From: Candidatus Kaiserbacteria bacterium RIFCSPHIGHO2_01_FULL_53_29
GTDB lineage: Bacteria > Patescibacteriota > Minisyncoccia > Phycocordibacterales > UBA2100
Length of the DNA stretch: 64,000 nt
Direction: 5' to 3'
Assembly (NCBI GenBank): GCA_001781125.1
Contig: MFKT01000009.1
Span: 10,712 to 74,711 of the forward strand
The translations under genes and the position numbers were made by a program. Each line of letters opens with the position of its first letter. Positions within the stretch are counted from its first letter, which is position 1. Of the stretch, positions 17,751 to 38,885 are shown piece by piece. The notes beneath the pieces were generated by a model, which was not told the origin of the DNA, made no database searches, and worked only from the letters and a program-made list of their open reading frames with translations.

Positions 17751-20414
17751 CTATAGCGCATTTTCGATTTGGGCAAGGATGTTTATCAACATCTGTGCAT
17801 CAGTATCCGTAATTTTCCCGTTTGTCGCTTTTTTCGATATCATTGTCGTAAGATTGGCAAGAGCTGCAGTAAGAGCCTGTTTGTTCTCCAATCTGTCGAC
17901 ACGCTTGAGGAGATTATTTTTTAGGCTCGCTTTTATATTCAACGAGATGATTTTTGTCTTAAGTTGAACAAGGACGTCTGCATTGAGCGCCACGCTATCT
18001 GACTGTGCCCCAAGAAGCTCCACAAGTGCCACAATTTCATTCGCATCCGCGGTTGTAATTTTCCCTTTCACTTCCTGATTTGATACTTTCTTCTTGAATT
18101 TCGCGAGAACTTTCGCATTCTTTTGTTTTTTTACCTCGATCTTCTTTTCAAGACCCACAACCTTTTTCAAAAGATCCTGCTTCAACTTGTCTTTGATGTC
18201 GAGGGTTAGGATTTTTTCTTTGATAAGTACAAGTAATTCACTGAGCGATGGTTCAGTGCCATCAGGAGAAATTGTTCGGTCGATCTGATTGTCGCCATTT
18301 ACGTCAACCTCTATAGTTGTCTCCTCCGGTGCGGTGCTTACAACCTCAAACGTGGCATTCGTATTCTCCGTCGTCGGAATATCGGAGAAGCTGGCGACTG
18401 GCGTCGTCGCATCTGCTATAAAATCCTCGATGGTGACCGTCGTGGAGCCGCTGCCGACACCCTGGTAGACAAATGTATAGGTACCCGTTTTCGGGAGAAA
18501 GATGTGCTGGGTCTCGCTGGTGTAAATGAAGCTACTCCCGGGAATATTTCCTAGAATCGTGAGAATCTCGGCTGAAAGATCTTGATTGGGATCAATGCCG
18601 GTGAGGTTCCCGAATTCATCGTACGCGCCGAGAATTACGGGAGAGTAGGTGCTGACTATTAACTCGTCGTCGAGATCGACAACCTGTGGTTTTGCGCCTA
18701 AGACGAAGTTAGTCTGTAGTATATTTTCACCACTGATTACTGACTCTATTAAACTTCGAATTGGACTGGTGCTTAACAAATCTCTATGTTGTGCTTGTTT
18801 GTTACCAGGCTCTCGATATAAATCAAGATTGAAAAAATACGTTTCATCCGCCACCGACGAAATTGCGCTCGGATAAACAACTGTGCTATCGCCTTCGCGG
18901 GTAAACAACGTCCCGTAACTCTGCAAAAAATGACTCGTTCGATACTCCACCGCTTTTACTGTTGGTCTCCCCCAGCCAGCGACCTGCACCACGCGAATGT
19001 GCTCGGGAAACGCATACGTGTCGTACATGGCATGGAAATCGGCAGCACCCCCCATGAGATCAGTCCGCACAACTTCTGGAATGTGCAGAAAGTTCTCGGG
19101 CGGACTCGTACGCGTAACACCTTGCCCCGTCATAAATTCGACGAACGGACTGTAGGTATTAATGAGGTTGCCCCAGAAATTTCTCCAGTTCTGCGTAAAA
19201 CCGACATCCGCGAATGTGATAACCGGATCAGTTACCGCACTAAAATATGCGGGCGATGGAAGGAGGCTGTATGCAGACGGCATGTTTTGCGAAATCGTGC
19301 GCGCTGCCGCGGGTTGCACAATAAAGCCGCTAGCAATTCCTTCACCATCGCCGTGGAGGATTGCAGAAATCGCCTGCGGTGTGCCGAGTTGTGGCGAGCC
19401 AACCATGACAAACGCATCGATGAGGTTATCTTTCCCCTCTTGTTGTAAACGTTTGATGATAGCCTTCCCCAAAAGTCCACCCATCGAGTGCGCAACAATT
19501 GTGACTTTGCCAGATCTCGAATTCGTCGCGAGCTGCTCTATTTTCTCAAGCACATCCACCATGCCACTGGACGTTTTGATGCCATCATCAATTACTTTCT
19601 CCGGCGAGTGTCGCCAGTCGTATGCAAGCGGCAGCCACTCTTCTATTAATCCTTCGCTGACAAGAGCGTCCATAAAGTTCGAAAACGGAGAGTAGATAGG
19701 AGAGCCGTAGAACGTGTCCAAAATGCCATTCACCTGTACATCATTCACACTCTCTCCCGCTTCATTGAGCGCAAGCTGCGGTACGTCATTGCTCCACGCG
19801 GTCGGCGGCCAGAGTGTGTCCGACCCGCTCCTCAAGATACTTCCCTTGATTCCTGGCAAGAAGAGCACGCTAGAGAATCCTACAACGGCACTCTCATCGG
19901 TGACGGTGAAGCGAATGGTTTCTACATAGTCTTCTGCTGATTGCGCGTATACAGTGTCGCCCAACACAAACTGCAGAAATCTCTGATAGAGGCCCCGATT
20001 CACTTGCACGGGTGGTGGTACGTTGTAGACGTCGAGCTCGTAGACACCAGGGACTTCCCACGTGAGGGTGTTCTCGCCGAAGAATCCTCCGATTGCTCCA
20101 ATGAGCTCGCGCGGAGATTGCGGATCGGGTATGCGAAAGAGAATGCCGCTCACGTCGAAAGAAGCACTACCTTCTATGCGGGCGACGTACACGTCTTTTG
20201 AGATATTGAGTGCTACGGGATACGTCCCGTCGTCTTCCATGTATATGCGATCGTCTGAAATGATTTCTCCTGTGTTGTCATCTTCTACGACAGTGCCCCA
20301 CACAAGCTGCGACGAAGCGAATGCGAAAGATGGTAGAGCGCACAGAAGGACGCCCGCGGTCAACGCAACCAAAAATACGTAGTAAAAGCGATTCGAAACT
20401 GTTCTGGCGGACAT
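17751..20414 (-). CDS. secreted alpha/beta-hydrolase, lipase/esterase-like (PGAP1/LCAT-like GHSMGG), with C-terminal tandem coiled repeats
   Basis: Signal peptide. VTIVAHSMGGLLGK nucleophile elbow. Two tandem K-rich repeats of about 65 aa at the C-terminus. Confidence 0.65.
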   Translation of the reverse strand: MSARTVSNRFYYVFLVALTAGVLLCALPSFAFASSQLVWGTVVEDDNTGEIISDDRIYMEDDGTYPVALNISKDVYVARIEGSASFDVSGILFRIPDPQSPRELIGAIGGFFGENTLTWEVPGVYELDVYNVPPPVQVNRGLYQRFLQFVLGDTVYAQSAEDYVETIRFTVTDESAVVGFSSVLFLPGIKGSILRSGSDTLWPPTAWSNDVPQLALNEAGESVNDVQVNGILDTFYGSPIYSPFSNFMDALVSEGLIEEWLPLAYDWRHSPEKVIDDGIKTSSGMVDVLEKIEQLATNSRSGKVTIVAHSMGGLLGKAIIKRLQQEGKDNLIDAFVMVGSPQLGTPQAISAILHGDGEGIASGFIVQPAAARTISQNMPSAYSLLPSPAYFSAVTDPVITFADVGFTQNWRNFWGNLINTYSPFVEFMTGQGVTRTSPPENFLHIPEVVRTDLMGGAADFHAMYDTYAFPEHIRVVQVAGWGRPTVKAVEYRTSHFLQSYGTLFTREGDSTVVYPSAISSVADETYFFNLDLYREPGNKQAQHRDLLSTSPIRSLIESVISGENILQTNFVLGAKPQVVDLDDELIVSTYSPVILGAYDEFGNLTGIDPNQDLSAEILTILGNIPGSSFIYTSETQHIFLPKTGTYTFVYQGVGSGSTTVTIEDFIADATTPVASFSDIPTTENTNATFEVVSTAPEETTIEVDVNGDNQIDRTISPDGTEPSLSELLVLIKEKILTLDIKDKLKQDLLKKVVGLEKKIEVKKQKNAKVLAKFKKKVSNQEVKGKITTADANEIVALVELLGAQSDSVALNADVLVQLKTKIISLNIKASLKNNLLKRVDRLENKQALTAALANLTTMISKKATNGKITDTDAQMLINILAQIENAL

Positions 20415-21483: not shown

Positions 21484-21545
21484 ACAGGATAGTTCGTAGT
21501 TAGTAGTAAGTAGTTCGTAGTAACGAACGAATGCAGTATATCAAA

Positions 21546-22049
21546 TTACTCAGCTTTAGCCTCCGCAGCCACTGCCTCTTCTGCTTTTGCTTCCTCCTTT
21601 GGCTCGCCGGAGCCTTCGGCGGAGGCGGCTTCTGGTGCCGCTGCCGCTTCGGTCTCCTTTTCAGTTGCTTCCGCCTTTACCTCTTCGTCGTGAGATGCTT
21701 TGGCCTCTGCCTTTACCGCAGCTTCGGCCTCTTTCTCTACCGCCTCCTCCTTGGCTTCCGCCGCTGCTTCTGCAGGCGCTTTGTACTTCGGCAGCACATT
21801 GATCTTCTTGGCATTGATGGCACCGAGGCTCACGAGCATGTTGTGGACGGTCGCGCTCGGCTGCGCACCCACCGACATCCAATATTTGATGCGCTCGGCA
21901 TTCAACACGCGTTCTTTGGATTTTGGATTGTAAGTGCCCACTTTCTCGACGAACTTCCCTGCCTTAGGACTCGCCGTGTGTTCCACCACGACAATGCGAA
22001 AGGAGGGCATATTTATGCGCCCCGTCCGCTGCATTCGTATCTTCAACAT
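21546..22049 (-). CDS. rpsP: 30S ribosomal protein S16 with an Ala/Glu/Lys-rich C-terminal extension
   Basis: MLKIRMQRTGRINMPSFRIVV... matches S16. Confidence 0.9.
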   Translation of the reverse strand: MLKIRMQRTGRINMPSFRIVVVEHTASPKAGKFVEKVGTYNPKSKERVLNAERIKYWMSVGAQPSATVHNMLVSLGAINAKKINVLPKYKAPAEAAAEAKEEAVEKEAEAAVKAEAKASHDEEVKAEATEKETEAAAAPEAASAEGSGEPKEEAKAEEAVAAEAKAE

Positions 22050-22089
22050 ATCCGCGACACTGTACCAGATAAGTATTAAAAATCAACGG

Positions 22090-22144: not shown

Positions 22145-24373
22145 TCACTTGGCGACTTTTTCTGCTTCTTCGAGCTTAACGGAAAGAAGTTTGGACACCC
22201 CGTCCTGCCCCATTGTGACACCGTAGAGCTCGCCGGCGGCGGCCATGGTCGCTCTATTATGTGTGATGACGATGAGCTGCGATTTTACGCCAAGCTCTTT
22301 GATCATATCGGCGTAGCGCTTTGAGTTGGCCTCGTCGAGCGCTGCGTCGGTCTCGTCGAGGATAAGGAACGGCGGGGGATTCACCTGGCTCATGGAAAAG
22401 ATGAGGGCGATAGAAGTGAGCGCGCGCTCGCCACCGGAGAGCACGTCGAGCCCGCGAATTTTTTTGCGGGGGAGTGAGACGTCGATAGAAAGCCCGGCGT
22501 AGAGCTCTTCTTCCTCTGGAACATCGTCGTCTTCCAACTCATCGTCATCGGCGGGGCCTGCCCCTGAGGTCGCGCGGAGCGCTTTCCTTCGGGGTTCCTC
22601 CACCTCAAGCTTCGCGTGCCCGCCGCCAAAGAGTTTGCTGAAGAAATTCTTCAGGGCTTCGTTGATATGTTTCAGCCCCTCGGTAAATCGCGCGTCAATC
22701 GTCTTCTCCAGTTCCGCGATGATGTCCTCAAGCTTCGACGCCGAGCTTTCAAGGTCGGCAAGTTCCTTTGCAAGGAATTCTTCGCGCTCTTTGGTCTGAT
22801 TGAATTCTCTCACTACCGTATCCCCGCTTCCCAGCCCCGATTCTTCTATCTTTATCTTCAGGCGCTCGATCTCGCGGCGGCGCTTCTCCTGGGCGTGTCG
22901 GTCCTCCTCGAGAAGCGCACCGGTGGGAACTTCCGCTTTCTCCCATCCGTGGACCTCCGCGCCGATAAGCGCAATCCCCTCCCGTACCTCTTCTTCGAAT
23001 CTCGTGCGCAGCGTCGCAATATTCGCCCGCGCCGCCTGCACTCCAGAAAGCTTCGCTTGGGCCTCGCGGACATTCGACTCCAACTCCACAAGATCGCGCT
23101 CGGCCGTGAATCCGGCCTCACGCGCCTCGGCAATTTTCTTTCGCAGGGCTTCCAATTCCTCCGCGAGGGCATTCTCCTGCGCGCGGACGCGCTCGAGTGA
23201 CTTTGCCAGACTCTGCACTTGCTGGCGTACTTCTTCGTTCGTCTCAGGCGCTGCTCCCGAAAGACCCTCCACAAAAGCCTTGATACGCTCGCGGACCTCA
23301 CCGAGGCGGCGCTTCAATATTGAAATGTCATCTTCCCGTTCTGCCTCTGCGACACTTTCGGAAAGCTCGCGCGCGAACTGGCGCACATGCGGCACCGGCA
23401 CGATCTGCTCGACGGTTACCGTATTTGCCTCCAAGGCACCTTCGGCGCGGCCGAGCTCGCGCGTCAGCTGCTCACTTTCGCGCCGAGCTTCGGAGAGCTT
23501 CCCTTCGCGCTCAGATAGCTTTGTCTGTAGTTCTTGCAACGCGCCGGAGCCGCCTGAAGCCTTCGTCGAACGGATACGCGAGACGGATTCGTTCAATTTT
23601 TTCAATTCGTGCGTTTGCGCTTGTTCTTCATGTCGAAGGCGAGCATCTTCTTGTGTTATCCACGCATTCTCACGCGTGAGGTACTCGTTGAGCTTCACTG
23701 CGAGCTCTTCTTTCATCTCACGGGCCTTTTCTATTTTCTCCACTTGCGTGCGCAGGAAGTTGAGGTGCGGCGCTATTTCCCGCCGAAGCGATTTTGTCTT
23801 CTCGATATTATTCCCTGTCTCTTCGAGCTTGCGCTCGCTCTCCGCCTTTTTGTGCTGATAGAGCTTGAGCCCCAGCGCATCTTCCACCATCTCGCGCCGC
23901 TCACGCGGGCTCGCGTTCAATATCCTATCCGCCTCTCCTTGCGAAATTATCTGGTAGCCCGAGCCGCCGATGTTGGCGCCGGCAAGCAGGCGGATAACAT
24001 CTTTCAGCCGCACTACGGTGCCATTCAATAAATATTCATTCTGCCCGTCCCGGTACACAATGCGCTCCACCGTCACCTCTTTGAAATCCAAGTCGAGAAG
24101 GCGTTTACTGTTATCAAATACGACGCGGACCGCCCCTCGATTGGCTCGCGGTAGTGCAGGCGAGCCGCCCCAAATCAAGTCTTCACCGCGCTTGCTTCGC
24201 ATGGATTTCATCGATTGCTCGCCGAGCACGAATCGGAATCCTTCCGCAACATTTGATTTACCAGACCCATTTGGTCCCACGATAGAAGCGATAGGCGAAG
24301 TGAATGCAAGCTCGGTCTTCTTGCCGAACGACTTGAACCCCGTTAGTTCAATAGATTTCAAACTGAGGAACAT
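22145..24373 (-). CDS. smc: chromosome segregation protein SMC (compact, 742 aa)
   Basis: Walker A GPNGSGKSN. Signature LSGGERALTSIAL. Walker B ILDETDAALD. Long coiled coil. Confidence 0.85.
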   Translation of the reverse strand: MFLSLKSIELTGFKSFGKKTELAFTSPIASIVGPNGSGKSNVAEGFRFVLGEQSMKSMRSKRGEDLIWGGSPALPRANRGAVRVVFDNSKRLLDLDFKEVTVERIVYRDGQNEYLLNGTVVRLKDVIRLLAGANIGGSGYQIISQGEADRILNASPRERREMVEDALGLKLYQHKKAESERKLEETGNNIEKTKSLRREIAPHLNFLRTQVEKIEKAREMKEELAVKLNEYLTRENAWITQEDARLRHEEQAQTHELKKLNESVSRIRSTKASGGSGALQELQTKLSEREGKLSEARRESEQLTRELGRAEGALEANTVTVEQIVPVPHVRQFARELSESVAEAEREDDISILKRRLGEVRERIKAFVEGLSGAAPETNEEVRQQVQSLAKSLERVRAQENALAEELEALRKKIAEAREAGFTAERDLVELESNVREAQAKLSGVQAARANIATLRTRFEEEVREGIALIGAEVHGWEKAEVPTGALLEEDRHAQEKRRREIERLKIKIEESGLGSGDTVVREFNQTKEREEFLAKELADLESSASKLEDIIAELEKTIDARFTEGLKHINEALKNFFSKLFGGGHAKLEVEEPRRKALRATSGAGPADDDELEDDDVPEEEELYAGLSIDVSLPRKKIRGLDVLSGGERALTSIALIFSMSQVNPPPFLILDETDAALDEANSKRYADMIKELGVKSQLIVITHNRATMAAAGELYGVTMGQDGVSKLLSVKLEEAEKVAK

Positions 24374-24454
24374 TGGGATTCATTGTATCAAAACAAACGG
24401 CGAGTTCCCGAGGGAACCCGCCGTTACGCGAACAACGCGTACGCAAACTGGACG

Positions 24455-24796: not shown

Positions 24797-25492
24797 TTAC
24801 CACCCTTTTACTAGAAGCGCCTTCAGGGCGGCGTCCTGTTCGGCCTCCTGTTTCGACTTTCCCTCGCCACTTGCAATGCGCTCGCTCCCCACATGTGCCG
24901 CAACGACGAATTTCTTATCATGGTCGGGCCCCGATTGGCTCACCACTTCGTATGTCGGCGTAACGCCCACCAATTCCTGTGCTATTTCCTGAAGTTTGCT
25001 TTTCGCATCCTGCCAAAGTCTCGATTCGACTATCTTCTCAGTCTTATGGAAAAGTTGCGCGCCTATAAAATCTTTTGCGGTTTCGTATCCCGAATCGAGG
25101 TATAGGGCACCGATAAGCGCCTCAAACGCGTTGGCCAAGATAATTTGCCGTGCACGGCCGGTGTCGCGCGCTTCGCCGCGCGAGAGCAAGAGATATTCAT
25201 TCATACCGAGTTTGGTGCCGGCATCCGAAATGCTCTGCGTATTTACGAGTGCCGCGCGATAGGCAGTCAGATCCCCTTCGGGTTTTTCCGGATATTTGGC
25301 AAAAAGGAATTCGGTAACGGCGAGTTCCAAGACCGCGTCGCCGAGAAATTCCAGCCGCTCGTTGTGCATTGCTCCGGGAGCCCGATTCTCATTGAGATAC
25401 GAGCGATGCGTAAACGCGGTCTCCAGCAGGCGTTTATCTTTGAACGAATATCCGATCTTTGTTTCAAAAGTCGAAAGGTCTGCCATGGTCAT
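24797..25492 (-). CDS. rnc: ribonuclease III
   Basis: ERLEFLGDAVLELAV signature. C-terminal dsRBD. Confidence 0.9.
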   Translation of the reverse strand: MTMADLSTFETKIGYSFKDKRLLETAFTHRSYLNENRAPGAMHNERLEFLGDAVLELAVTEFLFAKYPEKPEGDLTAYRAALVNTQSISDAGTKLGMNEYLLLSRGEARDTGRARQIILANAFEALIGALYLDSGYETAKDFIGAQLFHKTEKIVESRLWQDAKSKLQEIAQELVGVTPTYEVVSQSGPDHDKKFVVAAHVGSERIASGEGKSKQEAEQDAALKALLVKGW

Positions 25493-26403
25493 TTATTCTC
25501 GCCGCGGGCGAGCGCATTGATGGCAGGAACGATTATCTTGAGTGTGTCGTCATAAAAGTTCAGATCGCCCACCGCAGAGAGCGGAAACCATTGCGCGTCA
25601 TCCAAGCCTCCCGATGAGCCGAGCCGAAGCTCGGTGAAAGGGGATTCGGCCAGAAAATAGCTCACCCGCTTGCGCTTCTTACCGCCCTCGATTTTGGAAT
25701 CGTTGGCGACGTACTCATTCACTCCGAGCTCTTGCACGATTTTGATATCAAGCCCCATTTCTTCTTTTATCTCGCGGACGGCGCCCGCCTTCACGTCCTC
25801 TCCCTCTTCTATCTTGCCCTTCGATATGGTCCAGTGCCCGAAAATATCGTGCACAAAAGCCATATACGTCTCCCCCTCCGAGCGCGCATAGACGACCGCG
25901 CCTGCCAGATGTTCGGTCGGCATTTTGACGGGTTTGCCGCTTTCTTGCTTACGTGCCCCACCCTCATTCTTGCCCGGCTCGCCGAGTTCTACATAGACAG
26001 CGCCCAAGACGCCGTTGACGAATCGCCCCGAGGAAGTGCTGCCGAAAGATTTCGCGAGCTCGATAGCTTCGTTGATAGCGACCTTGGCGGGGACCTGCGC
26101 GCGGTCGGCAAAAAGAAGCTCCGTGAGGCCGAGGCGCAAAATATTCCGATCAATTGCAGATATTCTCTCGATCGGCCACTCGGGCGCAGCGCGCACGATG
26201 ACCTCGTCTATTTCTTTTTGTTTGGCAACAGCCGTCTGGAGGAGATCCTTCATGAACGGCATGTCCGAATCGCGTGTACCAAATTCCTTTCCGTAGTCGG
26301 CAAGGCGCGAGAGCGCCTGCTCAGGGGTCAACTTCCCTTCCGCAGCATCGCGCTCAAAAAGGACTTGCAAGACGACCGAACGTGCGAGGTGCCTATTTGC
26401 CAT
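25489..26403 (-). CDS. nusB: NusB antitermination factor fused to a C-terminal NUDIX hydrolase domain
   Basis: The N-terminal 140 aa is NusB (VAINEAIELAKSFGSTSSGRFVNGVLG). The C-terminus carries the Nudix box GKIEEGEDVKAGAVREIKEEMGL (Gx5Ex7REUxEExGU). Confidence 0.85.
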   Translation of the reverse strand: MANRHLARSVVLQVLFERDAAEGKLTPEQALSRLADYGKEFGTRDSDMPFMKDLLQTAVAKQKEIDEVIVRAAPEWPIERISAIDRNILRLGLTELLFADRAQVPAKVAINEAIELAKSFGSTSSGRFVNGVLGAVYVELGEPGKNEGGARKQESGKPVKMPTEHLAGAVVYARSEGETYMAFVHDIFGHWTISKGKIEEGEDVKAGAVREIKEEMGLDIKIVQELGVNEYVANDSKIEGGKKRKRVSYFLAESPFTELRLGSSGGLDDAQWFPLSAVGDLNFYDDTLKIIVPAINALARGENK

Positions 26404-26492
26404 AGAAGAACAACTTCACCACAATGAACATCTATTGAGTATACACGGCAATTCTAAAGAGCAAATGAAGTCGAGTGGGGAATGTGGAGGGA

Positions 26493-26768
26493 TTATTTTG
26501 CTGCTACCTCTTCTTTCTCTTTAGTCTCGGAGCTCTGGCCGCTGGCGCGCAATTCTTTTTGCTTGCGGGTGGCGCGGCGGGCATCTCGCTTCGCACGCGC
26601 AACGACATCGATGACAATCTTGCCGTTGTACTTGCCACACTCCGGGCATGCTCGATGCGGGACGCGCAAGGCACCGCACTCGCATTTGGCAAGGCGAGCC
26701 CCTGCTATTGCATGATGGCTTCTCCGCTTGGCGGTCTGGGAGCGATTCCGGCGCATTCGAACTACCAT
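26493..26768 (-). CDS. rpmF: 50S ribosomal protein L32 (with K/E-rich tail)
   Basis: MVVRMRRNRSQTAKRRSHHA...CPECGKY Zn-ribbon. Confidence 0.8.
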   Translation of the reverse strand: MVVRMRRNRSQTAKRRSHHAIAGARLAKCECGALRVPHRACPECGKYNGKIVIDVVARAKRDARRATRKQKELRASGQSSETKEKEEVAAK

Positions 26769-26771
26769 AAA

Positions 26772-26789
26772 CCGACAGTATACTGCCGG
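26772..26789 (-). promoter_or_regulatory. 18-bp near-palindrome CCGACAGTATACTGCCGG enclosing a TATACT -10, 4-8 nt upstream of the rpmF ATG
   Basis: 17 of 18 positions are palindromic. A tandem TTGGAGCTTGG repeat array lies at 26850-26895 further upstream. Confidence 0.35.
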
Positions 26790-26895
26790 AAGCTCCAAAT
26801 ATCAAATCTCAAATTCCAAACAAATTTTGATGTTTTAAAGCTTAGAAATTGGAAACTTGGAGTTTGTTTGGAGCTTGGGTCTTGGAGCTTGGAAT

Positions 26896-27483
26896 TTATT
26901 GCAGGATGCGGGAACAAAAAGTGGTCCGATGCACTTTGCAGAGACCCGACCCAAGGATAGCGCTGCGATGAAATTCAGTGCCGTACCCTTTGTGGATCTC
27001 AAAGCCGTACGTCGGATAGCGCCGGGCAAGCCTGCGCATCAAATGGTCGCGGGCGACTTTCGCCGCGATGGAAGCAAGCGAAATAATGGGCTCGGATTCA
27101 TCGCCGCGGATAATGGTGCTCTGTTTGATGAACACTTTCGGCGCGCGCAAACTGCCATCGAGCCGTATCTCACATTCCTCGGGAACAGCGTCGAGTTTGG
27201 CGAGGCATCGCGCAAGTGCGGAGTGAATAGCAAAGACGATGCCGCGGCGATCGATGGTAGCGGCTGAAGAAAACGAGACCGCAAAATCCAACGCGGCTTC
27301 GCGCTGCAAGGCGCGAAGCCGCTTATACCACTCTTGCCTCGCAAGCGCCGTCAATTGCTTCGAATCCCGTATCCCCTTCAACATATTGAAATCGAAATCG
27401 GCAGGCACTCTCACCGCCCCAACGCTAACCGGCCCCGCCAAGGGTCCTCTGCCTGCTTCGTCAATGCCGATGAGATAGCGCAT
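26896..27483 (-). CDS. rnhB: ribonuclease HII (start at MRYLIGIDEAGRG; ORF opens at 27561)
   Basis: LIGIDEAGRGPLAGPV active-site motif. Confidence 0.85.
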   Translation of the reverse strand: MRYLIGIDEAGRGPLAGPVSVGAVRVPADFDFNMLKGIRDSKQLTALARQEWYKRLRALQREAALDFAVSFSSAATIDRRGIVFAIHSALARCLAKLDAVPEECEIRLDGSLRAPKVFIKQSTIIRGDESEPIISLASIAAKVARDHLMRRLARRYPTYGFEIHKGYGTEFHRSAILGSGLCKVHRTTFCSRILQ

Positions 27484-27941
27484 CCCCGTAATAATAACAG
27501 AAGGGATCCCGGCAACGCGGAACCCCTTCCTATTTCTGAACGCTCTCGCCGGGAACGTCATTTCCGGCGACGTTTTCTCGTACTGTGGGCGTAGCCTTCC
27601 GGAGATTTCTCCAATTTCTCCGCAGCATCATTGAGCAATTTCCCCGTGATGTTGCCTCGCCGGCCGGGCGGTAACACGCCATCGCGCGGTGTCGGGAGAG
27701 GGCTCGGGAGTGGCTCATTCAGCCCTTCCCTTTTCGTGCCGGATTTTCCAGCACATTCGTCTTCCGTCGAAATCTTACCCATGGCCTCATTTCTCCTTGA
27801 GAGTTTGGGATTTAGTCGGGAATGACGGACCCGACTCAGCCGCCGCACGCAGATACAAAAAGAACTTGCCAACACTCTACGGGCTTGCTCGAATGAAGTC
27901 AAAGCGCGGTGGGGGAAAAGTCGTCGGTGTATACTGCCTTC

Positions 27942-37904: not shown

Positions 37905-38885
37905 GGACGTCAAGGGGTCGTAATGGTTCAATAGCTTGGAACCACCCGTGGCTCCAATATGACGTACATGGCATACAGCAAGAATCCAGAGCTCCCGAAG
38001 GTGCGGCGGGAAGCGGTCCGGTTGGTCAAACAGGAAGGATGGTCGACAAGGAAAGTGGCACGGCACTTTGGGTACACGCACAGCGCGATCGTGAAGTGGT
38101 GCGCAAAGGATCCGACAGGAGGGTTCAGACGAATCGAGACGCAATCATCGAAACCGAAGAGAAGTCCTCGGGCACTCTCGCGCGACGTGGTCTCGGCCAT
38201 CATCAAAGAACGAGTTGGCAGACGGCGGTGCGCCGAGCATGTGTACCACGCGCTCGTGAAGCATGGAGTCGGAGTATCGCTCTCGTCCGTGAAGCGCACG
38301 CTCGACCGATGTCATTTGCGCAAGAAACGCAGTCCGTGGAAGCGTCCGCACGACTTCACACCGCGACCGGAGGCGGCCTTCTGTGGAGCCCTGCTTGAGC
38401 TCGATACCATCCATATCATCGCACCGGACGGCTCAAGGATATACATATACACCATCATCGATCTGTATTCGCGGTGGGCGTACGCAGAGGTGGTGGAAAG
38501 AATCGGCGCGCACCGAAGCGCCGGGTTTGCGCGCAGAGCACAGGAGGCTGCACCATTCCGCTTCGTCATGGTCCAAACAGACCACGGGAGCGAGTTCTCA
38601 ACCCGCTTCACGCATCGTCTCCTGCAAAAAGATATTCACCATCGACACAGCCGTGTCCGACAGAAAGACGACCAAGCCCACATCGACCGATTCAACCGCA
38701 CGATCCAGGAAGAGTGTCTGGATCGGGTCACGCACACCGTCGCATCATTCAAACGTGCCCTGCCTCCCTATTTGCGTTGGTACAACACCGAGCGTACGCA
38801 CATGGGGATCAATTATCAAACGCCCCTTGATCTGGTTCCAAGGTCTTGACCTTATTTAGGGTCTGGTAAAAACCCCGCTTGAAAG
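37905..38885 (+). mobile_element. IS481-family insertion sequence (approximate ends; only weak terminal inverted repeats TCAAG-GGGT seen)
   Basis: A transposase gene with short flanks. Ends could not be defined confidently. Confidence 0.45.
37959..38849 (+). CDS. IS481-family (IS3 superfamily) DDE transposase
   Basis: N-terminal HTH. rve integrase core. C-terminal LPPYLRWYNTERTHMGINYQTPLDLV is typical of IS481. Confidence 0.8.
   Translation: MTYMAYSKNPELPKVRREAVRLVKQEGWSTRKVARHFGYTHSAIVKWCAKDPTGGFRRIETQSSKPKRSPRALSRDVVSAIIKERVGRRRCAEHVYHALVKHGVGVSLSSVKRTLDRCHLRKKRSPWKRPHDFTPRPEAAFCGALLELDTIHIIAPDGSRIYIYTIIDLYSRWAYAEVVERIGAHRSAGFARRAQEAAPFRFVMVQTDHGSEFSTRFTHRLLQKDIHHRHSRVRQKDDQAHIDRFNRTIQEECLDRVTHTVASFKRALPPYLRWYNTERTHMGINYQTPLDLVPRS

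Follow-up and report, generated by a model that had tools for sequence, protein, structure and literature searches.

The locus described here raises a simple question: what is a Nudix domain doing at the C-terminal end of NusB? To our knowledge, NusB is otherwise a single-domain core transcription factor, and we know of no characterised NusB that carries a linker and a Nudix domain. In the window, by which we mean the whole 64,000-nucleotide stretch of DNA analysed, one minus-strand gene encodes both. The organism belongs to the Parcubacteria branch of the Candidate Phyla Radiation (CPR), whose members are largely uncultured. The original prediction had recognised the fusion and had proposed for its Nudix half an RppH-like activity, either RNA pyrophosphohydrolase or decapping.

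A single uninterrupted gene for NusB and a Nudix domain

The gene and its parts lie as follows.

25489..26403, minus strand: nusB::nudix fusion gene, 304 amino acids plus stop, ATG start, one uninterrupted open reading frame (ORF)
25984..26403, minus strand: NusB domain, amino acids 1-140, assigned by Pfam and TIGR01951, Foldseek and alignment to E. coli and Aquifex NusB
25918..25983, minus strand: interdomain linker GEPGKNEGGARKQESGKPVKMP, amino acids 141-162 (about 22 residues), from the translation, predicted to be disordered
25492..25917, minus strand: Nudix domain, amino acids 163-304, of the Ap4A/ApnA-hydrolase type (NUDT2, aq_158, Ndx1), assigned by profile search, Foldseek and hhalign
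25750..25818, minus strand: canonical Nudix box GKIEEGEDVKAGAVREIKEEMGL, amino acids 196-218, by pattern match

The product is identical to NCBI OGG53637.1 (UniRef100_A0A1F6CX14), which the databases annotate as NusB only. Pfam nevertheless recognises both halves, NusB (PF01029) at amino acids 7-136 (E 2.1e-30; 106 bits, cutoff 23) and NUDIX (PF00293) at amino acids 187-279 (E 4.5e-16; 59.5 bits, cutoff 21). The original assignment of the first 140 residues to NusB is borne out by the equivalog model TIGR01951, whose 117.7 bits exceed the cutoff of 88.35, and by the stretch KVAINEAIELAKSFG, which aligns with an identical stretch in E. coli NusB (1EY1). The Nudix box was likewise read correctly as canonical: residues G196-x5-E202-x7-R210-E211-I-x-E214-E215-x-G217-L218 make up the complete pattern GX5EX7REUXEEXGU.

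The AF2 model of the protein contains two confident domains. The Nudix half has pLDDT values mostly of 80-95 (amino acids 163-301), falling to 65 at amino acids 231-240, and linker residues 143-158 have values of about 40, which amounts to predicted disorder. With this linker and a pTM of 0.50, the AF2 model predicts no fixed contact between the NusB and Nudix domains. Separate expression of the Nudix half from an internal start at M161 was considered and rejected, as this methionine is absent from the family consensus.

The fusion is widespread in the lineage

Related loci were taken from the best 80 species genomes, found with an alignment of the 11 closest sequences. These genomes are labelled as Patescibacteria/Parcubacteria-type MAGs, except for one labelled Nanoarchaeota. 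The check on phylogenetic distribution that the original prediction had called for gave a clear result, the fusion ORF being present without stop or frameshift in the window and in 78 of the best 80 species genomes. One related genome, L002, has its NusB and Nudix halves in different frames, as might be expected if a sequencing or assembly frameshift elsewhere had joined two separate genes. Such an artefact is scarcely credible as an explanation of the family and is effectively refuted by the intact frame in 78 of 80 independent species genomes; moreover, both Pfam domains occur in all 240 listed 90%-identity clusters, which are drawn from many projects, and the identical fusion protein is found on 15 contigs. 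The linker varies in length between 10 and 44 amino acids (median 25), and its start, GEPGK, is kept in 73-78 of 78 GTDB loci.

The nusB::nudix fusion is thus confirmed as real and widespread in the lineage. It is also previously undescribed: a search of the literature for a NusB-Nudix fusion, including in Patescibacteria/Parcubacteria, found none. All named database entries examined for the family read "NusB" or "N utilization substance protein B" only, with one exception annotated "hypothetical protein", and because of these names the extra Nudix domain is invisible in annotation.

A genuine NusB in a conserved gene neighbourhood

The NusB half is all-helical, with seven helices in the AF2 model, and Foldseek superposes it on the NusB-NusE-BoxA structures 3r2c and 3r2d with a TM of 0.87 and an rmsd of 2.0-2.1. 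In the alignment to E. coli and Aquifex NusB, F128 matches EcF122, and all 58 family representatives carry this phenylalanine. EcF122, an aromatic residue of helix alpha-7, is the phenylalanine that stacks on U8 of BoxA (PMC3177189). The half therefore shares with E. coli and Aquifex aeolicus NusB (3R2C, 1EY1) the fold, the identical stretch noted above, the U8-stacking phenylalanine and a passing TIGR01951 score; the fusion differs from them in adding a C-terminal linker and a 140-amino-acid Nudix domain, and in adjoining rnc. To judge from sequence, the N-terminal half is a genuine NusB, the organism's BoxA-RNA-binding antitermination subunit.

The customary neighbours of nusB are ribH or folD. 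Here the fusion gene lies in a different same-strand cluster.

26896..27561, minus strand: rnhB (RNase HII), first gene of the cluster, Pfam RNase_HII E 2.7e-33
26493..26798, minus strand: rpmF (ribosomal protein L32), upstream of nusB::nudix, Pfam Ribosomal_L32p, position kept in related loci
24797..25492, minus strand: rnc (RNase III), 231 amino acids, directly downstream of nusB::nudix, TIGR02191 253 against a cutoff of 166, Pfam Ribonuclease_3 and dsrm
25489..25492, minus strand: ATGA overlap of 4 nt, joining the nusB::nudix stop (TGA, 25489-25491) to the first rnc ATG (25490-25492)
22145..24373, minus strand: smc, 742 amino acids, downstream of rnc, Pfam SMC_N, position kept in related loci

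The order rnhB-rpmF-nusB::nudix-rnc is found in all of the best 80 related loci. The true start of rpmF is probably downstream of the first start codon of its ORF, since Pfam matches its product only from ORF residue 19 onwards. The 4-nt overlap with rnc, on which the original prediction had based translational coupling, exists in the window, and a second in-frame ATG 6 nt further on means that the exact start of rnc is not proven. The overlap is a local feature: in related genomes the estimated spacing between fusion and rnc ranges from -23 to +421 nt, and what is conserved is only the adjacency of rnc, seen in 80/80 loci. The 423-nt spacer between rnc and smc was dropped as part of the feature, since it has no Rfam match and neither its small ORFs nor its DNA are conserved in any of the 80 loci.

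BoxA-like elements upstream of the fusion gene

Two candidate BoxA-like elements lie just upstream of the gene.

26455..26462, minus strand: BoxA-like element GCTCTTTA in the rpmF-nusB spacer, with a 7-nt core at 26456-26462, 52-59 nt upstream of the nusB::nudix ATG
26405..26411, minus strand: second, imperfect BoxA-like element, GTTCTTC, directly 5' of the nusB::nudix start codon

Many related loci have GTTCTTT 7-30 nt upstream of the nusB::nudix start. Under a strict pattern, GYTCTTT falls within -70 to +6 of the start of nusB::nudix in 29 of 78 loci (about 40%), against none of 66 for rnhB, none of 76 for rpmF, none of 80 for rnc and 2 of 59 for smc. The rpmF-nusB spacers of the related loci hold 36 matches to the motif, compared with 5.7 +/- 2.5 in shuffled sequences. 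When up to 3 mismatches to the complete E. coli BoxA 13-mer are allowed, the window shows no enrichment (12 matches, 11.9 expected). Significance is limited to the 7-nt core, and to the region upstream of nusB::nudix. A further GTTCTTT upstream of rnhB (27859-27865) was set aside as a chance occurrence, related loci having 4 sense and 5 antisense matches.

In gamma-proteobacteria the Nus-factor loci suhB, nusE and ribH-nusB are subject to BoxA-mediated autoregulation, with the consensus GYTCTTTAANA (Baniulyte et al. 2017, PMC5725501). The GYTCTTT core is likewise found here in the 5' region of a Nus-factor gene; the differences are that the lineage is CPR, that just the 7-nt core is kept and that it often lies 7-30 nt from the start. 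The enrichment of the motif upstream of nusB::nudix suggests a comparable Nus autoregulation.

The Nudix half is of the Ap4A-hydrolase type

In a profile search of PDB sequences, the Nudix half matched Aquifex aq_158 best (3i7u, E 2.3e-22), followed by CT771 (4ilq, 3.4e-16), Ndx1 (1vc8, 5.6e-15), the C. elegans Ap4A hydrolase (1kt9, 1.8e-13) and human NUDT2 (3u53, 6.6e-13); Dcp2 came after these Ap4A/Ap6A hydrolases, at 5e-10. Foldseek also ranked 3i7u first (TM 0.86-0.88), and the TM values of 0.83-0.88 against Nudix enzymes identify an alpha/beta/alpha Nudix fold. The closest relatives of the Nudix half are Ap4A/Ap6A hydrolases: Aquifex aq_158, Ndx1 and NUDT2.

The likeness would extend to the ligand pocket. 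When aligned with NUDT2 by hhalign (probability 98.3), H190 corresponds to NUDT2 H37, K195 to K42, Y231 to Y82, K245 to K89 and Y284 to F128, as placed by profile alignment only. In NUDT2, positions H37, K42, K89, Y82 and F128 are the P1-phosphate and adenine-stacking residues of the Ap4A hydrolase (PMC4734340). More generally, by sequence profile and by structure alike the best matches are NUDT2-type hydrolases (Aquifex 3I7U, Thermus Ndx1 1VC8, Chlamydia CT771, C. elegans 1KTG, human 3U53 and, in mycobacteria, the Nudix domain of MutT1/Rv2985). They share with the fusion Nudix a W-x-x-[PS]-K-G motif before the box, the aligned P1-phosphate lysine and two adenine-stacking aromatics and, as regards the window protein, the canonical box. 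They differ from the fusion family in that its Nudix domain is always tethered to NusB, never free-standing, and in that the catalytic glutamate and arginine residues are degenerate in most of its divergent members.

Other Nudix types fit poorly. The original prediction would fall if the domain bore the signature of ADP-ribose or 8-oxo-dGTP hydrolases. It bears neither, and the corresponding models score far below their cutoffs: 20.6 against 169 for NudE (NF008736), representing the ADP-ribose/ADP-compound pyrophosphatases of NudE/NudF type, and, for MutT/MutT1-type 8-oxo-(d)GTPases, 16.6 against 97.9 (TIGR00586), 25.5 against 148 (NF008044) and 38.5 against 475 (NF052459, MutT1). ADP-ribose enzymes are not among the best matches either; 3o8s appears weakly in the profile search, at 4e-4, and the Nudix domain of NrtR weakly in the Foldseek comparison (TM 0.70-0.71, 17% identity). 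The RppH label itself fared less well. Membership of known RppH families is rejected by scores of 25.9 (cutoff 118) and 18.8 (cutoff 116) for NF001936/NF001938, and of 15.7 (cutoff 154.4) for YtkD (TIGR02705). E. coli RppH is absent among the 60 PDB profile matches listed, of 68 that passed the E-value threshold, and Bdellovibrio BdRppH gives a Foldseek TM of just 0.70 with 18% identity to the fusion Nudix model. What survives of the RppH proposal concerns activity. E. coli NudH, B. subtilis YtkD and BdRppH are likewise Nudix proteins in an RNA-processing setting, and the action on triphosphorylated RNA proposed for the fusion Nudix would run alike. RppH handles and removes Ap4A-like Np4N caps (PMC9283932), and NUDT2 converts 5'-triphosphate RNA to 5'-monophosphate RNA (PMC8616924, PMC9283932). 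By analogy, it is reasonable to hypothesise an RppH-like action on RNA 5' ends for members whose catalytic residues are intact, the window protein among them.

Catalytic residues are often lost while putative pocket residues are kept

The catalytic apparatus is unevenly preserved in the family. Among close relatives, the Nudix box is kept in 116 of the 120 clusters that form the window's own clade; of 53 divergent representatives of 50%-identity clusters, only 9 retain it. In the family at large, 52 of 132 proteins have all five catalytic positions (E202, R210, E211, E214, E215) unchanged, and 47 of the 132 show the full canonical seven-position pattern. At least 20 changes of catalytic state are required on a neighbour-joining tree. 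Divergent proteins hold on to the residues that align with the ligand pocket: among 54 such sequences, 94% have K195, 80% Y231 (with F in another 11%), 94% Y284 and 93% W191, as against 26% for E211, 52% for E214 and 59% for R210. Conservation of W191, Y249 and W272 may reflect the core of the fold.

Since the pocket residues are kept while the catalytic glutamates are often lost, nucleotide binding rather than hydrolysis looks to be the conserved property of the family. Pyrophosphohydrolysis, the activity originally proposed, cannot be the function of the family as a whole, because the catalytic glutamates are gone from most divergent members.

The best functional analogy for the degenerate-box members is CFIm25/NUDT21 of mammalian cleavage factor Im. 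Both are Nudix folds within an RNA-processing factor, and CFIm25 is described as binding Ap4A and ATP without hydrolysing them (PMC2425470). It differs from the fusion in being eukaryotic and a separate subunit, and in lacking specific sequence kinship; the box of the window protein, moreover, is intact.

These patterns bear on several explanations of the Nudix half. One could regard the fusion as a matter of convenience, in which a housekeeping hydrolase of Ap4A or nucleotide polyphosphates was joined to NusB for co-expression only, in a streamlined CPR genome. CPR genomes are small, the flexible linker allows two independent activities, the window's clade keeps a canonical box and the nearest homologues are ordinary housekeeping enzymes. 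We nonetheless think this unlikely. An inactivated pure enzyme is expected to decay or vanish, yet the Nudix half has been retained, at a mean pairwise identity of about 44% (52% for the NusB half), with its pocket residues still present in 46 proteins that have at least two catalytic substitutions, and architecture and gene order hold in 78-80 of the best 80 species.

The repeated loss of catalytic residues from a retained fold also invites the view that the Nudix half serves the antitermination complex as a protein-protein module and no longer as an enzyme, the surviving boxes being a relic. A precedent would be SuhB, an enzyme-fold protein described as integral to the E. coli rRNA antitermination complex (PMC6614797); similarly, protein interactions of CFIm25 are attributed to its Nudix domain (PMC2425470). 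A purely structural role of this kind seems improbable to us, given that the best-conserved exposed residues align with nucleotide-contacting ones and form no obvious new surface, and that the window's clade shows plain constraint on the box.

A third explanation takes the kinship with hydrolases of free Ap4A/Ap6A at face value. The Nudix half would bind free Ap4A or ApnN (or some other purine polyphosphate, ATP or (p)ppGpp for example), hydrolysing it if the box is intact, and would couple signals of translation stress to NusB antitermination and, through the operon, to RNase III. The pocket residues that outlast catalysis agree with such a sensor, as does the non-hydrolytic binding of Ap4A by CFIm25 (PMC2425470), and Ap4A is described as a stress signal produced by aminoacyl-tRNA synthetases (PMC4734340). 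Against this, the AF2 model shows no defined domain interface, so that no allosteric path to NusB is visible, and a sensor has no need of linkage to rnc. We regard an alarmone sensor as possible, if somewhat doubtful.

A proposed NusB-tethered reader of RNA 5' ends

The reading that we favour, tentatively and at somewhat less than an even chance, is that the Nudix domain, tethered to NusB, reads or hydrolyses the 5' polyphosphate end of RNAs that carry BoxA. In the Parcubacteria lineage, NusB has acquired a permanent connection, a flexible linker of about 25 amino acids, to a Nudix domain of the Ap4A/ApnA-hydrolase type. The NusB half would dock on BoxA in nascent leader RNA, both in rRNA leaders and in its own 5' UTR, allowing the tethered Nudix to capture a nearby purine-nucleoside 5'-polyphosphate end of the same RNA, whether an Np4N cap or a 5'-ppp or 5'-pp end. 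Where the box is intact, as it is in the organism of the window, the Nudix domain would probably hydrolyse this end in the manner of RppH or NUDT2, and the leader fragment that RNase III sets free would thereby be made ready for decay. In the many lineages whose box has degenerated, the domain would probably be just a reader of 5' ends or nucleotides that adds binding strength or regulation.

Several observations weigh on the other side. The failure of the known RppH sequence models counts against an RNA 5'-end reading of the Nudix half, and so does the nature of its closest solved relatives, for all of which the described substrates are free dinucleoside polyphosphates or nucleotides. The loss of catalytic residues in most divergent members argues, in addition, against hydrolysis as the core function. 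It is tempting, if decidedly speculative, to go on to imagine an antitermination factor that senses RNA 5' ends, its Nudix domain reading the 5'-triphosphate or Np4N-cap status of nascent BoxA transcripts and hydrolysing these ends in some lineages. The degenerate-box forms would then be pure readers, a bacterial counterpart of CFIm25.

The natural variants with intact and degenerate boxes offer a ready-made test of hydrolysis versus binding alone. If the Nudix half acts on RNA 5' ends, 5'-end-dependent RNA metabolism, with its RppH/NUDT2-type chemistry and Np4N caps, would be physically joined to Nus function and to RNase III. On the more speculative reading, of a factor that senses RNA 5' ends, CPR bacteria would have a link from RNA 5'-end chemistry or the Ap4A alarmone to the antitermination of rRNA, to processing by RNase III and to the clearance of leaders. 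The lineage-wide fusion of NusB to a Nudix domain suggests that rRNA antitermination or processing is partly different in the Parcubacteria branch of this radiation.

Results

A NusB-Nudix fusion conserved across relatives

The nusB::nudix gene is a single ORF of 304 codons with an ATG start, in which a domain search recovers both predicted domains (PF01029 NusB at residues 7-136, E 2.1e-30; PF00293 NUDIX at residues 187-279, E 4.5e-16). It passes the NCBIfam NusB equivalog model TIGR01951 with 117.7 bits (cutoff 88.35), its stretch KVAINEAIELAKSFG is identical in E. coli NusB, and a complete Nudix box, GX5EX7REUXEEXGU, occupies residues 196-218 (GKIEEGEDVKAGAVREIKEEMGL). Thus all the elements of the original prediction, namely the two domains in one ORF, the box, the E. 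coli-identical stretch and the overlap with rnc, are present in the sequence. An identical protein is on record as OGG53637.1 (UniRef100_A0A1F6CX14), encoded by a Candidatus Kaiserbacteria MAG (Patescibacteria, Parcubacteria group), whose annotation reads "transcription antitermination factor NusB" and nothing more. Apart from one "hypothetical protein", the named database entries inspected go by NusB alone or by "N utilization substance protein B", and we found no description of a NusB-Nudix protein in the literature searched.

Of the 90%-identity clusters, the 120 top matches (80-100% identity) all have both Pfam domains, as do a further 120 clusters at 51-62% identity; clusters with the fusion stem from many independent projects. 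Among 50%-identity cluster representatives, more than 50 matches were full-length fusion proteins, with identity down to about 30%. When one genome per GTDB species was scanned with the Nudix-domain alignment, at least 600 stretches matched and at least 591 of them encoded a relative; locus counts refer to the best 80 of these relatives. By their labels, 79 of the 80 are Patescibacteria/Parcubacteria-type MAGs or generic or questionable entries, and one is Nanoarchaeota. The order rnhB-rpmF-NusB domain-Nudix domain-rnc is found wherever the contig reaches far enough. Against a frameshift or stop separating the domains, the ORF is uninterrupted in 78 of these 80 loci; of the exceptions, L049 ends at a contig edge, and in L002 the two halves do not share a reading frame, suggesting a frameshift or pseudogene. 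With a phylogenetic distribution spanning 240 clusters and 78 of the 80 best species loci, the fusion is real, and an artefact is hardly credible.

Two relatives deserve separate mention. Locus L077 bears the label "Nanoarchaeota archaeon" yet has typical Parcubacteria gene order, so that the bin is probably mislabelled. Protein P0269 (577 aa, ENA metagenome) carries about 300 aa of additional sequence N-terminal to a degenerate NusB-like region and a Nudix domain; one stretch of this addition looks, by eye, like a cold-shock/S1-type domain.

Gene neighborhood

Features of the same-strand cluster and its surroundings
17751-20414 (-): 887-aa protein with an LCAT-like alpha/beta-hydrolase domain, an unusual neighbor adjoining rpoB/rpoC
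21531-22079 (+): longer ORF antisense to rpsP, rejected as spurious
21546-22049 (-): rpsP, followed in the cluster by a gene for a KhpA-like KH protein and then trmD
22145-24373 (-): smc, 742 aa
24374-24796: 423-nt spacer between rnc and smc
24396-24425 (-): GC-rich 13-bp hairpin in this spacer, directly 5' of the smc start
24797-25492 (-): rnc
25489-26403 (-): nusB::nudix
26493-26798 (-): rpmF/L32, ORF of 101 aa, Pfam match at residues 19-64
26896-27561 (-): rnhB
37959-38849 (+): IS481-type transposase/integrase (rve and HTH), amid several ORFs without a Pfam match

The dnaE gene lies upstream of the cluster in divergent orientation, and rpoB/rpoC are found farther along in the window. The nusB::nudix stop codon TGA (25489-25491) overlaps the first ATG of rnc (25490-25492), giving a 4-nt overlap. 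The rnc product is RNase III (TIGR02191, 253 bits against a cutoff of 166; Pfam Ribonuclease_3 and dsrm). Because another in-frame ATG lies 6 nt downstream, the exact rnc start is not proven; the two genes are tightly packed whichever is used. The overlap that had been predicted is thus true of the window, but what relatives keep is adjacency, with an estimated spacing of -23 to +421 nt across the 80 loci: adjacency to rnc is conserved, the 4-nt overlap a local feature.

Several neighbors have peculiarities of their own. The true start of rpmF is probably 3' of the first start codon of the ORF, and L32 carries a Lys/Glu-rich C-terminal extension of about 35 aa. The product of 21546-22049, judged from its N-terminal sequence, is ribosomal protein S16; its C-terminal tail of about 90 aa is rich in Ala, Glu and Lys. 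In the SMC homologue, Pfam gives only SMC_N across the two ends, without a hinge-domain match; in related loci, tblastn matches to this SMC cover much the same length (about 2.2 kb), pointing to a short form of SMC in the lineage. The rnc-smc spacer has no Rfam match, and the 80 related loci show no conservation of its DNA or of its small ORFs.

A NusB half joined by a flexible tether

AlphaFold2, run on a 150-sequence alignment, models residues 5-140 as seven helices and residues 163-301 as a Nudix alpha/beta/alpha fold (mean pLDDT 85.6). Since pLDDT falls to about 40 at residues 143-158 and pTM is 0.50, the model is one of two confident domains joined by a flexible tether, with no fixed interface predicted. 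The linker measures 10-44 residues in the fusion proteins (median 25). On average, pairs of sequences share 52% identity in the NusB half, 44% in the Nudix half and 30% in the linker. The start of the linker, GEPGK (aa 141-145, window 25969-25983), is kept in 73-78 of 78 related species genomes and in every closer relative despite the disorder predicted there, and could serve as a short binding motif.

The NusB half matches the Aquifex NusB-NusE-BoxA complex 3r2c (Foldseek, TM 0.87, rmsd 2.0). Its F128 aligns with F122 of the E. coli and Aquifex proteins, which stacks on BoxA U8 and is needed for NusB function (PMC3177189). As F128 is invariant in the 58 fusion sequences examined (58/58) and R4, R8, E95, G131 and other NusB positions are almost so, we conclude from residue conservation that the N-terminal half is probably a working NusB.

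A BoxA-like element upstream of the fusion gene

In the window, the spacer between rpmF and nusB contains TGCTCTTTAG, with the core GCTCTTTA at 26455-26462 (- strand); an imperfect second copy, GTTCTTC, lies at 26405-26411 (- strand), immediately 5' of the nusB::nudix ATG. The most frequent 7-mers in such spacers are GTTCTTT (20/77) and GCTCTTT (17/77, the window's own spacer included in both counts). On the sense strand G[CT]TCTTT occurs 36 times, in 33 of 76 spacers, against 5.7 +/- 2.5 (maximum 14) expected from dinucleotide-preserving shuffles and 3 on the antisense strand. Its density is 5.1 per kb in the spacer versus 0.26 per kb elsewhere in the loci; between dnaE and rnhB it is 0.27 per kb. 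Positions -70 to +6 of the start codon contain the motif for nusB::nudix in 29/78 loci, and for rnhB, rpmF, rnc and smc in 0/66, 0/76, 0/80 and 2/59, respectively.

This motif coincides with the core of GYTCTTTAANA, a published BoxA consensus; according to the same paper, autoregulation by way of a 5'-region BoxA is common among Nus-factor genes (PMC5725501). As motif evidence, the enrichment and the match to the consensus support a functional NusB recognizing a GYUCUUU BoxA, and suggest autoregulation of the nusB::nudix-rnc unit by NusB/S10. The spacer also contains a -10-like TATACT (26438-26443, -), a candidate internal promoter flanked by the two BoxA-like copies; at about this position the related loci L001-L003 show GGTATACT.

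An Ap4A-hydrolase-type Nudix half

The best structural match of the Nudix half is the Aquifex Ap4A hydrolase 3i7u (Foldseek, TM 0.86-0.88, rmsd 2.2), followed by the Nudix domains of MutT1/Rv2985, Thermus Ndx1 (an Ap6A hydrolase), CT771, and the C. elegans and human Ap4A hydrolases; BdRppH gives TM 0.70 at 18% identity. A profile search ranks similar proteins at the top.

Matches of a profile from 43 diverse fusion-family members to all PDB sequences
3i7u, Aquifex Ap4A hydrolase: E 2.3e-22
4ilq, Chlamydia CT771: E 3.4e-16
1vc8, Thermus Ndx1: E 5.6e-15
1kt9, C. elegans Ap4A hydrolase: E 1.8e-13
3u53, human NUDT2: E 6.6e-13
4k6e and others, Dcp2: E about 5e-10
9cxx, M. tuberculosis MutT1: E 1.3e-9
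3ees, BdRppH: E 2.4e-5

The window protein scores far under every cutoff of the RppH, MutT, MutT1, NudE and other family models. Together, these matches and scores place the domain in the Ap4A/ApnA-hydrolase type, outside the RppH, MutT and ADP-ribose families; a signature of ADP-ribose or 8-oxo-dGTP hydrolases is absent. As for the RppH-like activity originally proposed, its RNA-processing context is genuine but membership in the RppH family is unsupported, and the term describes a hypothetical mode of action, not a family assignment.

State of the catalytic positions E202, R210, E211, E214 and E215
Close relatives, 80-100% identity (n=120): all five intact 116; E211K 4
Clusters, 51-62% identity (n=120): all five intact about 100
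GTDB loci (n=78): all five intact 42; one change 23 (E211K commonest); two or more 13
Divergent 50%-identity cluster representatives (n=53): all five intact 9; one change 11; two or more 33

Pyrophosphohydrolysis is not, then, the conserved feature of the family, all five positions being intact in 9 of 53 divergent representatives. Some Nudix enzymes tolerate non-canonical boxes. By parsimony on a neighbor-joining tree of 132 fusion proteins, the box changed between canonical and non-canonical at least 20 times (mean with shuffled labels, 41), and degenerate-box loci keep the gene order (e.g., L017, L018, L041, L062, L066, L069-L071 and L076). In a diverse set of 54 (the 53 divergent representatives plus the window protein), retention is 26% for E211, 52% for E214, 59% for R210 and 65% for E202. 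The corresponding values are 93% for W191, 89% for T192, 94% for K195, 93% for Y249, 94% for W272, 94% for Y284, 80% for Y231 (plus 11% Phe) and 76% for K245 (plus 13% Arg), and these eight are equally kept in 46 proteins with at least two catalytic substitutions.

In a profile-profile alignment (probability 98.3; NUDT2 sequence checked against 3U53), H190, K195, Y231, K245 and Y284 correspond to NUDT2 H37, K42, Y82, K89 and F128, and residue roles are transferred on this basis. In Ap4A hydrolases a His, two Lys and a Tyr hold the P1 phosphate, and the adenine ring is sandwiched by Tyr and Tyr/Phe (PMC4734340). W191, Y249 and W272 may be fold-core residues. Our reading of these patterns is that selection keeps purine-nucleoside polyphosphate binding family-wide, rather than hydrolysis; the clade of the window protein has probably kept hydrolysis as well. 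That the domain is kept after catalytic loss weakens the idea of a fusion of convenience with a housekeeping hydrolase, which we regard as improbable. We likewise see little likelihood that the domain is a structural subunit only, analogous to SuhB.

Discussion

Ap4A hydrolases and Dcp2 both recognize a nucleoside attached via a 5' polyphosphate. Among the precedents, NUDT2 converts ppp-RNA to p-RNA (PMC8616924), RppH takes Np4N caps off bacterial RNA (PMC9283932), and CFIm25, inside an RNA-processing factor, binds Ap4A without hydrolysis (PMC2425470). A Nudix domain on a tether of about 25 residues from BoxA-bound NusB would be favorably positioned to encounter a leader RNA at its 5' end. Taken together, the shared recognition mode, the NUDT2 and RppH precedents and this position lead us to favor, tentatively, a tethered RNA 5'-end reader/hydrolase. 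With an intact box, as in the window protein, it would convert the 5' end to a form in which the leader fragment, once cut by RNase III, can be degraded; with a degenerate box the domain would only bind, like CFIm25. The domain might instead sense free Ap4A or another alarmone and modulate NusB, an alternative that we consider rather unlikely.

Judged from the upstream motif, NusB-Nudix probably controls its own operon, rnc included. The protein is a core transcription factor with an extra domain across the lineage.
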